Part shown: positions 29,093 to 32,136 of the stretch, in pieces
How the letters are laid out: each line of letters begins with the position of its first letter
How positions within the stretch are numbered: the stretch's first letter is position 1
DNA from: an uncultured Candidatus Saccharibacteria bacterium
GTDB taxonomy: Bacteria > Patescibacteriota > Dojkabacteria > GCA-002793355
Reading direction: 5' to 3'
Length of the DNA: 64,000 nucleotides
NCBI GenBank assembly: GCA_964525295.1
Contig: CAZGEO010000001.1
Span: 312,662-376,661, forward strand
Notes under the pieces: generated by a model
Seen by the model: only the letters and a program-made list of their open reading frames with translations
What the model was told of the DNA's origin: nothing
The model's database searches: none
Made by a program: the position numbers and the translations under genes

Positions 29093-30355
29093 CTACTCCC
29101 TCAAACTCTTCATGAAATCAGCATTGTTCTTGGTAGTCTTCATACGTTCGATAAGTACTTCTGAGGCATTTTCGCCATTTTTCTCGATATTGTCGAGCAT
29201 TCTGCGAATTAACCACGATAATTGCAAGGTTTCTTGACCAAGTAAGAGATCTTCACGACGAGTTCCTGAACGAACGACATCGATTGCCGGATAAATACGC
29301 TTCTCACCAAGACTTCTGTCAAGATGAAGTTCCATGTTACCAGTACCTTTGAATTCTTCGTAAATAAGGTCATCCATCTTGCTACCTGTATTAACAAGCG
29401 CAGTTGCAATAATAGTCAAGCTACCGCCTTCTTCAAAATTACGTGCAGCACCAAAGAATCGCTTTGGTGGATACAACGCAGCAGGATCAAAACCACCTGA
29501 CAAGGTACGACCAGAACTTGGAATAACCAAGTTATAAGCACGTGCCAATCGGGTAATACTATCCATTAAGATTACAACATCTTTATTCCATTCAACCAAT
29601 CGTTTTGCTCTTTCGAGTGCCATTTCAGCGACAGTTACGTTGTTTTGTGGATGTTCATCGAAGTTCGAGGCATACACCTCACCCTTGATAGAACGCTGCA
29701 TATCGGTAACTTCTTCAGGTCGTTCACCAACTAACACTACAATAATTTGTACATCTGGATGATTTGCCGAAATACCGTTTGCAATTTCTTTCAATATCGT
29801 CGTTTTACCTGCTTTAGGTGGTGAAACTACCATTGATCGTTGACCGTGCCCAATTGGCGAGAGTAAATCGATGATTCTTGTAGAAAGAATATCTGGTGAA
29901 GTTTCAAGATGCAATTGTCTATTGGGGAAAATCGCAGTTCTTTTCTCGAAAGGTACTCGTTTCTGATTTTCTGCTGCTCCAAGGCCGCTAACATAATCGA
30001 CTTTAAGCATATTGCGGTATTTTTCACCTTCTTTTAAAGGACGCACAACACCTTCTACAACATCCCCTGTTCTGAGGCTAAATTTCTGAATTTGTGTACT
30101 CGATACATAAATATCTCGTGAGCTAGGAAGAACACCTTCGACACGAACAAAGCCGTGATTACCATTATTTACTACTTCGAGAAAACCTTTCTCGTATTCG
30201 AAACCGCCTTTTATGGCTGAGGCCCGCAATATATCGTAAATAAGTTGCTCTTTGTCTTTGGCTGTGTAGTTTGCGACGTCTTTAACGTCGTATTCACCGG
30301 CCATTTTCTTTAAGGCAACGAGTGTTTCTTCTTGAAGTTTTTGAACAGTTAACAT
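29093..30355 (-). CDS. rho: Transcription termination factor Rho.
   Basis: The N-terminal domain, RNA-binding OB region, P-loop [16 protein letters not shown] and the C-terminal ATPase region with [13 protein letters not shown] are all present. 420 aa. Confidence 0.9.
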
Positions 30356-30417
30356 GAAAAATGATGATTATTTTAAGACTCTTCGGCTTAATTCACGCGA
30401 GAGGATGATTTTCATTA

Positions 30418-30426
30418 ATTATATCA
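30418..30426 (-). promoter_or_regulatory. Extended -10 element TGATATAAT, about 60 nt upstream of the rho ATG. Proposed as the proximal rho promoter.
   Basis: Minus-strand sequence is TAGACA-16 bp-TGATATAAT. The identical TGATATAAT element is also found upstream of the S1 gene. Confidence 0.4.
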
Positions 30427-30505
30427 CAGGAACGTACTCTGTCTATTCAGTTAGTTACTTCTGAATATTAGGTATGTTCTAAAGATTTTAATGTGGGAGA
30501 TTTTT

Positions 30506-30546
30506 AAAAAAGGAGAGGGGATCGGCACTGCCCCAAACCGATCCCG
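30506..30546 (-). terminator. Rho-independent terminator.
   Basis: Minus-strand RNA is GGGAUCGG-UUUGGGGCAGUG-CCGAUCCC-CUCUCC-UUUUUU. The stem is a perfect 8 bp and GC-rich, followed by a U6 tract. Confidence 0.6.
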
Positions 30547-30649
30547 AGGAAAACTCACTTTTATGAACTTTCCTCGAGATAGTGCCCGAGTAATGTCTCC
30601 TTATCCTCTGGCCCAGAACTTCCAGACCAAGGGATAAAAATACATTTCT
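30506..30649 (-). ncRNA. Candidate ~140-nt small RNA or attenuator-type leader transcript upstream of rho. Promoter and terminator are defined. It contains a 14-codon mini-ORF, MYFYPLVWKFWARG.
   Basis: It is bounded by a perfect consensus promoter (30656-30684) and an intrinsic terminator (30506-30546). No protein-coding ORF of 60 aa or more is present. Three alternative hairpins are described in the findings. Confidence 0.5.
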
Positions 30650-30655
30650 GAGTTA

Positions 30656-30684
30656 ATTATACTCTAGTGCATACCGCATGTCAA
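30656..30684 (-). promoter_or_regulatory. Perfect sigma70 consensus promoter: TTGACA, 17-bp spacer, TATAAT.
   Basis: Minus-strand sequence is TTGACAtgcggtatgcactagagTATAAT. Both hexamers match consensus 6/6 and the spacer is exactly 17 bp. It drives transcription toward rho. Confidence 0.6.
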
Positions 30685-30843
30685 TAGCAATACAGTATAT
30701 AGGCAATAGTATTGCAGAACTGGCTTTCGCCCCTATCAACGGGGGCTTTGTACACATCCGTGATTTAGCTATGGTACGTGAAACATCTAAATTATAAGAC
30801 AGGAAAACGGACAGTTTAATGCACAAAACGATGTGAAATGTAA

Positions 30844-32136
30844 CTATCCTAACGCTGCAATGTTTGGAATGCTCTTATGAGCATAAATATTCTCGAATGT
30901 AAGCTTCTTTGCCTCTTTATAGCGCTGATCGAACGCATTCCCTGGCTTAACCTCGCCAAGAAGCCCCACCTCACCAATAAACAATGAATTTGTCCACACT
31001 TTACCAGTTAACGATGAAATCATTGCTGCAACAATAGCCAAATCAGCACCAGAATCTTTGATCGTGATGCCACCATTTACCTTAATAAATATATCTTTAT
31101 GATCTAAATGCAGCTTAGGTAGCTTCTTCGCGATTACTGCAGCTAAAACTTCAACACGATTCTTTGAAACCCCCTCAACTACCCTTCTAGGTACTGCAAA
31201 TGGCGAATCATTGACCAATGCTTGAACTTGCACAACCATTGGACGAGTTCCTTGCAATGTCATGGCAAGCGCACTTCCTGGTTCATTTGAAGAAAGTGAC
31301 GAAACCAGCATCGTGGCAAAGTCCTGCTTGTCAGACATTCCCTGCACATGCATATCAAGAAAACCAACTTCACCGGTATCACCGTAACGATTTTTCAAAG
31401 TTCTAATCATACGGGTATTTTCACTCCCGACCTTTTCTAGGTATACAACAACGTCAACGATATGCTCAACCGTTTTAGGGCCAGCAACGTAACCTTCTTT
31501 AGTTACCTGCGCAATCAAAAATACTATTGTGTCATTCTTTTTTGCCCACGTCGTTAATGCACCAGTTACTGCTTTTAATTGACTCATTCCACCTGACAAT
31601 CCATCAAGACCTGAATCTTGCAATGAATGGATTGAGTCAATAACAACTGCATCGAATGATTGCCCCGAAAGTCCAGAAACAATCACTTCCAGATCTTGCT
31701 CTGACAGCAGATATAAATTTTCTGGGGCATTTTTTGCTACACGTTCTAATCGCTCTGAAACCTGCTCTAACGACTCTTCACCCGACACATACGCTACCTG
31801 CTTACCTTGCATGGCAAATTGAGCCAAAATCTGAAGCAAGAGCGTAGACTTTCCTATACCTGGGTCGCCACCAACTAGAACCACCGTCCCACGCGAAATC
31901 CCCCCACCTAAAACTCGATCTACTTCAGAAAATCCCGTTTTCAATCTTTCCTTAAATTTTCTTTCAACTTTATGCGCCTGTACGAAGCTGGCAGACGTTC
32001 CGAATTTCGCAATCAAACCTTTCTTAGCCGCCTTAGGGGCATCTGCTGTTTCTTCAAAAGAGCCCCATTTTTCGCACTGAGGGCATTTTCCTGACCACTT
32101 CGATTGATTAAAACCACAACTATTACAAACGTACAT
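30844..32136 (-). CDS. radA: DNA repair protein RadA (Sms).
   Basis: N-terminal zinc ribbon MYVCNSCGF...CPQCEKWGSF, the RecA-like P-loop GGDPGIGKSTLLLQ, and a C-terminal Lon-protease-like domain. I chose the ATG at 32136 (MYVCNSCGF), which has a TATAAT box 6 nt upstream. The track start is TTG at 32154. Confidence 0.85.
   Translation of the reverse strand: MYVCNSCGFNQSKWSGKCPQCEKWGSFEETADAPKAAKKGLIAKFGTSASFVQAHKVERKFKERLKTGFSEVDRVLGGGISRGTVVLVGGDPGIGKSTLLLQILAQFAMQGKQVAYVSGEESLEQVSERLERVAKNAPENLYLLSEQDLEVIVSGLSGQSFDAVVIDSIHSLQDSGLDGLSGGMSQLKAVTGALTTWAKKNDTIVFLIAQVTKEGYVAGPKTVEHIVDVVVYLEKVGSENTRMIRTLKNRYGDTGEVGFLDMHVQGMSDKQDFATMLVSSLSSNEPGSALAMTLQGTRPMVVQVQALVNDSPFAVPRRVVEGVSKNRVEVLAAVIAKKLPKLHLDHKDIFIKVNGGITIKDSGADLAIVAAMISSLTGKVWTNSLFIGEVGLLGEVKPGNAFDQRYKEAKKLTFENIYAHKSIPNIAALG

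Follow-up and report, generated by a model that had tools for sequence, protein, structure and literature searches.

The gene encoding Rho, the transcription termination factor, is autoregulated in Escherichia coli, Salmonella, Bacillus subtilis, and Caulobacter by Rho-dependent terminators in its own leader (PMC12360218, PMC11599450), and in B. subtilis, read-through from upstream promoters past intrinsic terminators adds to rho expression (PMC11599450). In Salmonella, the small RNA (sRNA) SraL pairs with the rho 5' untranslated region (5' UTR) and blocks premature Rho-dependent termination, according to the accounts of Silva et al. (2019) given in PMC12360218 and PMC11599450. We analyzed the rho locus in a 64,000-nucleotide (nt) stretch of contig CAZGEO010000001.1 (positions 312,662 to 376,661), here termed the window and used for all coordinates below; the nearest rho loci place it in Candidatus Dojkabacteria (WS6, Patescibacteria). 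The gene (29093..30355, minus strand) encodes a protein of 420 amino acids (aa) that matches profile NF006886 with 590 bits. The 488-nt gap between radA and rho contains, on the same strand, a unit of promoter and hairpins that comparison across genomes shows to correspond to a conserved, strand-specific, predicted noncoding structured RNA of ~140 nt, served by a consensus promoter of its own and bearing a terminator-like hairpin at its 3' end.

This locus resembles the rho leaders of model bacteria in that untranslated, putatively regulatory RNA precedes rho and that a G-poor stretch with more C than G lies before the ATG. As in B. subtilis, transcripts from the upstream promoter must cross an intrinsic terminator to reach the gene. 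Unlike the model leaders, the RNA is here a separate, highly structured, and sequence-conserved entity that has a consensus promoter of its own as well as a GC-rich terminator and is placed before the promoter of rho itself; no counterpart of its first or third hairpin (H1 and H3, below) is described there, and Rho dependence is suggested here by composition only. Like SraL, the small RNA is tied to rho, in this case by position; unlike SraL, which is encoded elsewhere and acts by base pairing, it is encoded beside rho and shows no above-chance pairing with the rho leader. To our knowledge, bacteria of the Candidate Phyla Radiation (CPR), with their tiny genomes and few known regulators, have almost no described regulatory RNAs, and we found no RNA upstream of rho in the literature on CPR, Dojkabacteria, or Microgenomates.

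Relatives were collected by rho-anchored genome retrieval (loci L001, L002, L003, L006, and L007, with Rho 85 to 89% identical), and further loci by exact-protein lookup of Rho homologues (69 to 90% identical); the same lookup with the window's own Rho found nothing. When the whole intergenic region was compared with five relatives by blastn, similarity was confined to 30690-30515, from promoter to terminator, and this unit is conserved ahead of rho in 16 other Dojkabacteria loci. A covariance model, R1, built from 11 close sequences, recovered 17 distinct loci at 42 to 157 bits on the rho strand versus 17 to 35 bits on the reverse strand. Exactly one copy is present in the window (149 bits versus 25.5 on the opposite strand). 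When 17 sequences were aligned under guidance of the model, 94.3% of the cells were paired and 25 of 43 pairs had changed on both sides, a level reached in 0 of 500 shuffles; slid controls gave 36 to 58%, and an alignment made with MAFFT only agrees. Both the homology in related genomes and the compensatory stem changes that the original prediction had named as checks are thus present, the latter in H1 (12/23 pairs), H2 (11/12), and H3 (2/8). The segment 30650-30500 of the minus strand folds at -56.9 kcal/mol (z = -4.6), with equal stability in 0 of 200 shuffles.

The unit also keeps its place. It lies directly upstream of rho and on the same strand in 17/17 members, including L091, whose upstream neighbor is not radA and which nevertheless has the RNA ahead of rho. 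A rho-blind metagenome scan for exact matches to a 29-nt H3 sequence returned two loci, both adjoining rho. Rfam 15, searched as had been proposed, gave no family for the unit: the whole 64-kb window had zero matches at the gathering threshold, with no tRNA, tmRNA, rRNA, or other Rfam-recognizable RNA gene in it, and at E ≤ 10, the region 30300-30900 had only chance matches to small nucleolar RNA (snoRNA) and U6atac. Together, these comparisons show a new predicted RNA family, absent from Rfam and positionally locked to rho in one branch of Dojkabacteria. This structured family is well supported; its promoter outscores every other one in 64 kb, and its position links it to the master factor of transcription termination.

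We then examined the parts of the unit. Promoter P1 (30656..30684, minus strand) consists of TTGACA (30684-30679), a 17-bp spacer, and TATAAT (30661-30656), with a predicted start near 30649. The perfect sigma70 promoter of the original prediction was found exactly there: P1 scores 12/12 against the consensus and is the sole perfect match in 64 kb, where 0.08 is expected. It was also the lone 12/12 site across three 20-kb scans, in which other sigma70-like matches were at or below shuffle expectation. An equivalent TTGACA-N17/18-TAnnAT is located 20 to 24 nt ahead of the H1 core, at a fixed distance, in all 16 loci checked.

From 5' to 3', the RNA comprises H1, a C-rich linker, a variable H2, a near-invariant H3, and a pyrimidine/U tail. 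H1 (30593..30645, minus strand), a hairpin of ~23 to 24 bp, starts almost at the predicted 5' end and has a conserved core, UCCCUUGG...CCAGAGGA, with a conserved C.A mismatch; it is 94.5% paired in the alignment, and although it is the largest hairpin of the unit, the earlier set of structures had overlooked it. The single-stranded linker UACUCGGGCACUAU (14 nt; 30579..30592, minus strand) carries GCACU at 30585-30581, whose complement, AGUGC, spans the H3 loop and 3' arm. H2 (30546..30575, minus strand) is the ~15-bp hairpin already proposed downstream of the ORF (open reading frame) discussed below. It has 12 to 15 bp, varies between genomes in sequence and length, can lengthen to 30543-30578 through CUC:GGG, thereby running into H3, and gives way in L091 to ~170 nt of additional structure separating H1 from H3. 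The 6-bp CUCGGG/CUCGAG hairpin that had been proposed beside it can form in the window and is not conserved.

H3 (30518..30545, minus strand), the terminator hairpin, has an 8-bp stem, GGGAUCGG/CCGAUCCC, and a 12-nt loop, UUUGGGGCAGUG (30537-30526), that ends in GGGGCAGUG. Stem and loop are nearly invariant. In the loop, only bases one to three vary; in the stem, covariation is confined to L091 (GGGGUUGG/CCAACCCC), where pairing is preserved. No other perfect, GC-rich hairpin of 8 bp on the two strands of the window has a T5+ run close by. H3 is followed by the 3' tail, CUCUCC plus U6 (30506..30517, minus strand), in which U6 begins 6 nt past the stem; pyrimidine/U-rich tails are found in all relatives, and in most of them, the U-run directly abuts the stem. 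Of the "textbook" intrinsic terminator originally described, the GC-rich hairpin and the U6 stand, their distance to the rho ATG (30355) being ~150 nt, and the textbook geometry does not, as the loop has 12 nt and a further 6 nt separate the stem from the U-run; for these two reasons, a generic terminator scan missed H3. An intrinsic terminator at the 3' end of the leader, as in an attenuator, is nevertheless predicted from H3 and the tail. Intrinsic-terminator-like sites occurred at or below shuffle frequency in the three 20-kb scans, a pattern that fits a genome making little use of canonical intrinsic terminators. The hairpins are not mutually exclusive, as had been thought: H1, H2, and H3 sit in series along the RNA, and the only overlap is the GGG shared by H2 and H3.

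H1 encloses the whole 14-codon ORF on which the original prediction had built a leader peptide (MYFYPLVWKFWARG plus stop; 30601..30645, minus strand). The ORF exists, with its two Trp codons, and has no coding signal in relatives, so we judge that it is not a gene. Its AUG is present only in the window; the homologous triplet in 15/15 relatives is UCG, UGA, UGG, AGG, GGG, UAG, AAG, or AAA, with an in-frame UGA in five of them (L001, L002, L003, L006, and L007), and no other ORF within the RNA is common to the window and the 15 relatives. The Trp UGG triplets persist merely as strands of the H1 stem (CUUGG and UCUGG), the frame being broken in relatives, and the abundance of aromatic residues in the peptide simply follows from UGG and UUC strings conserved in these strands. 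The RNA start does lie close to the AUG, as predicted, ~4 nt ahead of it, and therefore leaves no room for a ribosome-binding site. Since the AUG is confined to the window, five relatives have the in-frame UGA, and no ORF is shared, we rejected both the leader-peptide and the small-protein models.

We next considered alternative folds of the RNA. The minimum-free-energy (MFE) fold of the window RNA omits H3: GGCACU of the linker pairs with AGUGCC, which joins the last bases of the H3 loop to the initial CC of the 3' arm, and H2 is extended by AU:AU and CUC:GGG. The two folds are about equal in energy (-56.4 kcal/mol for this alternative and -56.1 kcal/mol with H3 forced), and the probability of H3 is 0.35. 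The linker:H3 helix is the MFE structure in 8/15 relatives (L001, L002, L003, L006, L007, L085, L086, and L089), whose linkers are complementary to as much as UUUGGGGCAGUGCCGAUC. In these eight, the alternative helix is ahead by 0.9 to 6.2 kcal/mol (ΔΔG, -0.9 to -6.2; with shuffled linkers, +2.7 to +5.5; z between -3.4 and -8.2, except for -1.9 in L006), and the probability of H3 falls to between ~0 and 0.11. The GCAC(U) motif occurs in 13/17 linkers at shifting positions, which argues for selection on pairing and not for inheritance of alignment columns. The near invariance of H3 would also be explained by a loop and 3' arm that take part in both folds. A structure that competes with the terminator ahead of rho is thus predicted, as originally proposed, and its partner is the linker (GGCACU:AGUGCC), not one of the hairpins then suggested; the pairing assigned to the end of the ORF and a second segment did not hold, as the ORF is closed within the self-contained H1 and the competitor of the terminator is the linker downstream of H1. 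The linker:H3 helix could be an antiterminator, a loop-limited pseudoknot, or a refold after release, among which equilibrium folding cannot choose.

Between the tail and the rho ATG lies a G-poor spacer with the rho 5' leader (30356..30505, minus strand), which holds rho's own promoter, P2: TAGACA at 30445-30440 and the extended -10 element TGATATAAT at 30426-30418 of the minus strand. The extended -10 element had been noted before and was found downstream of the terminator, P2 scoring 11/12 plus TG. TGnTAnAAT is located 66 to 75 nt upstream of the rho ATG in 11/16 loci, and the rest show, by eye, other -35/-10 pairs. In all 16 loci, the spacer has 6 to 15% G versus 21% for the strand and a C/G ratio of 1.1 to 2.5 versus 0.8. 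A G-poor composition with C exceeding G is expected of Rho utilization (rut) regions and of regions of Rho-dependent attenuation, and the 16 spacers are, as C-rich and G-poor untranslated leaders, rut-like in composition. The rho 5' leader itself (30356-30417, minus strand) is conserved as AAUCCUCUCGC...GCAGAGAUCUUAAGAUAAUCAUC-U-rich-AUG, and neither the window nor its homologues have a recognizable Shine-Dalgarno sequence there.

We propose, with a probability of roughly 0.45, that H3 is a conditional, factor-dependent terminator governed by linker capture, so that the unit would produce both a small RNA and, under regulation, read-through into rho. Under this model, the strong P1 would launch the ~140-nt RNA, which encodes no peptide, and most polymerases from P1 would stop at H3, a conditional intrinsic terminator, and release the small RNA. 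Capture of the H3 loop and 3' arm by the linker would form an antiterminator helix enclosing H2, and the polymerase would then continue through the G-poor, rut-like spacer into rho, adding to transcription from P2. A trans-acting factor (a protein or a small ligand), and not the ribosome, would set the switch, probably by reading invariant surfaces, either the H1 core or the GGGGCAGUG loop together with the linker; the terminated RNA may also act by itself. The strength of the alternative helix in 8/15 relatives and the same-strand adjacency to rho in 17/17 were counted for a switch into rho, as were the G-poor spacers of all 16 loci and the covarying GGGCAG-loop hairpin found ahead of rho in WWE3 and Microgenomates (below). 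Riboswitches and protein-dependent leaders offer a parallel: in the HMP-PP/thiS riboswitch class, conserved nucleotides lie within the terminator hairpin itself. Our unit likewise has conserved nucleotides in and around the terminator hairpin, predicted terminator and alternative helices that exclude each other, and an adjacent gene on the same strand. In contrast to those leaders, it matches no Rfam riboswitch, its alternative helix is not family-wide, and the gene has its own promoter. A conditional terminator would mean that the level of Rho is set in a way that differs from both Rho-dependent autogenous attenuation and SraL pairing, and the invariant loop GGGGCAGUG and the GCACU of the linker are concrete experimental handles.

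Several findings weigh against conditional termination. A conserved promoter, P2, intervenes between H3 and rho, where an attenuator would have none; with this promoter and a 5' leader downstream of H3, rho does not need read-through for its expression. H3 and the ATG are 84 to 298 nt apart, with no conservation of the sequence between them. In the window and the rest of its subclade (L092, L082, and L083), the alternative helix is indistinguishable from shuffled linkers, and it is absent in L084, L088, and L090; scans for another duplex partner of H3 in L091, L088, and L090 gave no signal above shuffles. Equilibrium folding is uninformative on the choice made during transcription, and the H1 core and H3 loop are sensor candidates only. 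In four Microgenomates-type loci with a possibly related hairpin (below), one or two same-strand ORFs separate it from rho.

Some of these points favor instead a stand-alone sRNA that acts in trans, by protein binding or base pairing, which we ranked nearly as likely as the conditional terminator. H3 would then be a constitutive terminator with its invariant loop as the recognition surface; the linker:loop helix would be either a pseudoknot or the refolded form of the mature RNA, and the adjacency to rho an inherited arrangement without function in cis. The unit has what the gene of a trans-acting sRNA would have, that is, a predicted promoter and intrinsic terminator of its own and no ORF; it is discrete, and its conservation ends at its borders. 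The invariant loop and H1 core resemble recognition surfaces, rho has its own promoter, and the RNA is retained even though the alternative helix is missing in 3/15 relatives and weak in four more; the ORFs between hairpin and rho in some Microgenomates loci point the same way. Of the fallback offered by the original prediction, an independent small RNA or a small-protein gene, block conservation and strong covariation support the former, and the latter has no coding signal. The conserved purine-rich loops on variable stems also recall the sRNAs of the CsrB/RsmZ type, and two Microgenomates loops share AGGRCAGG; the differences are that the loop motif is GGGCAG and not GGA, and that there are only one or two copies of it.

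Against such an sRNA, the same-strand adjacency to rho holds in every member, as it does for the related hairpin across three classes, and a helix that beats the terminator by up to 6 kcal/mol in eight lineages is unexpected for a constitutive terminator. Target complementarity is also lacking in rho: RNAduplex comparisons of the RNA with the rho 5' UTR gave z values of -2.1 to +1.6, with no pairing above chance, and the rho loci contain no conserved complement of the H3 loop (CTGCCC). This seed test covered the rho leader and the rho loci, and the conserved loop may be occupied by the linker. A seeming UAUCUU/AAGAUA covariation, noticed by eye, failed across genomes. Even as a stand-alone sRNA only, the unit would be a clean candidate for Rfam and a lead to a binding partner.

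We then looked at rho loci beyond this branch. In the main Dojkabacteria clade (L004 and L005; Rho 63 to 65% identical), an equally strong promoter lies upstream of rho, with one or two long hairpins that carry the H1 core, CCCUGGG...CCCAAGGG, and the same C.A mismatch (L005:2434-2600 and L004:2650-2860). Their loops are C-rich (12 nt, pyrimidine-rich ACCCCUCGUCGYC) and contain several YC dinucleotides, the motif bound by the primary site of Rho, and the last hairpin is followed by a U-run. The GGGGCAGUG hairpin is absent upstream of rho in L004 and L005, and model R1 matches neither these nor other CPR loci. WWE3 (L023, L024, and L052) and ~16 Microgenomates-type loci have, on the rho strand, a long hairpin with a GGGCAG loop core, usually 100 to 270 nt upstream of the rho ORF. 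The 15-bp stem of the Microgenomates hairpin is 95% paired; 12/15 pairs have changed on both sides, and the loop AGGGCAG is invariant. Going by position and loop motif only, homology of these elements to the window RNA is plausible. An ancient riboregulator with a GGGCAG-loop hairpin might then precede rho across Microgenomates, WWE3, and Dojkabacteria and have been turned, in the branch studied here, into a ligand- or protein-sensing terminator/antiterminator switch. We regard this extended scenario as rather unlikely; if true, it would represent a new class of attenuator or riboswitch controlling a general termination factor.

The Microgenomates hairpin with the AGGGCAG loop (hairpin C) forms the 3' part of a larger conserved RNA upstream of rho, ~200 to 300 nt as judged by eye, within a region that begins ~330 nt upstream of the GGGCAG position and ends 45 nt downstream of it (L039, L040, L042-L045, L048, L050, L055, L056, L060, L062, L066, and L067). 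This RNA also has a stem A, AAAGAGCAUUACUAUCGCU...ACGAAUAGCAAUGCUCUUU, whose 3' strand resembles the boxA sequence UGCUCUUUAA, a hairpin B with the loop UCAGGACAGGUGA, and the conserved single strands AAUAACA and UGUCAAGA. No Rfam family matches it or the related CPR loci.

A diverged housekeeping RNA beyond recognition by Rfam models, namely, the 4.5S RNA of the signal recognition particle (SRP) or 6S RNA, is very improbable. The very strong promoter, single window copy, and length of ~140 nt would suit it, and the H1 apex GGUUCGGAAG...AGCC bears, by eye, a loose likeness to the SRP helix 8 sequence. We rejected the SRP-like apex and the 6S-like rod, as the covariation of H1 supports a fold without GNRA tetraloop closure, there is no AGCA symmetric-loop motif, and the 5' and 3' ends are unpaired, contrary to the 6S rod. 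A universal RNA would moreover be expected in L004, L005, and the other CPR loci that R1 misses, and the Rfam searches described above, both at the gathering threshold in 64 kb and at E ≤ 10 around the unit, did not find one. Still less credible is a DNA-level element, such as an operator palindrome or recombination site, or a chance coincidence of promoter- and hairpin-like sequences: GGGATCGG...CCGATCCC is indeed an inverted repeat in DNA, and promoter-like matches occur at chance frequency in this AT-rich genome, against which stand the strand asymmetry of the R1 score in the window, the G.U pairs and compensatory changes in H1 and H2, the asymmetric and conserved loop, and the retention of the whole block in 17 loci.

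The ribosome-mediated attenuator with its 1:2/2:3/3:4 layout, or a small-protein gene, comes last and is ruled out by the 15 relatives, which lack the AUG and in part have in-frame stops: the window does offer an ORF that opens with AUG and has two Trp codons, together with a terminator and a structure competing with it, and it shares with the trp, his, leu, and pheA attenuators a short transcript, an intrinsic terminator upstream of a gene, and alternative pairing, but it differs from them in several ways. Neither an ORF with a start codon nor regulatory codons nor a ribosome-binding site is conserved; substitutions in the ORF segment are compensatory within H1 and not synonymous; the competing strand is a linker between two stable hairpins and not a ribosome-covered segment; the ORF segment takes no part in the competition; and a promoter lies between terminator and gene.

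Two other readings of H3 were dropped. The CAGUG in its loop recalls an iron-responsive element (IRE), and the outgroup loops have AGGGCAG without CAGUG. A scan of viral contigs gave 79 matches to CGGNNNGGGGCAGTGCCG, all in GC-rich contigs without the element, which look like chance and not like phage copies.

In the DNA upstream of P1, a direct repeat, ACTATT-N16-GCTATT, with 22-bp phasing (30683..30710, minus strand), abuts the -35 box. The window contains one match to it, by itself not above chance, and the arrangement ACTATT...ACTATTGACA, (A)ACTATT-N16-ACTATT, recurs at the same position in most relatives among L001-L007 and L082-L092; it is possibly an UP element or a transcription factor site. 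Promoters upstream of rho in Microgenomates have an analogous repeat, ttcYTATAGG...TATAGGCTTGACA. In L085, L088, and L090, a second consensus-like promoter (TTGACA...TATAAT/TACTAT) lies ~80 to 100 nt upstream of P1, followed by AUACUACA(A/G)G...AAACUAUAAAC, and may be a tandem promoter or belong to a further tiny transcript.

The upstream neighbor of the unit in the window is radA (32154-30844, minus strand). A DnaA-box-like motif occurs on the rho strand 130 to 400 nt upstream of the RNA, the window copy being TGTTTCACG at 30777-30785 (minus strand). It is a perfect TTATCCACA in Microgenomates (L039, L040, L042, L055, L056, L060, L062, and L067) and in L004 and L005, and TGTT(T/C)CAC(A/G) in the clade of the window. 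In 11/16 Dojkabacteria loci, the rho strand carries the degenerate motif, and the other strand has it in 0, with a window background of 0.16/kb/strand. A replication origin at this place was rejected, because the GC skew is monotonic across the window.

Finally, public assemblies call ORFs of 59 to 69 aa over the RNA or spacer in three loci, L082:2207-2386, L086:2291-2494(-), and L088:2272-2481(-). They have no Pfam matches and are probably annotation artifacts, the one on the RNA strand overlapping the RNA itself.

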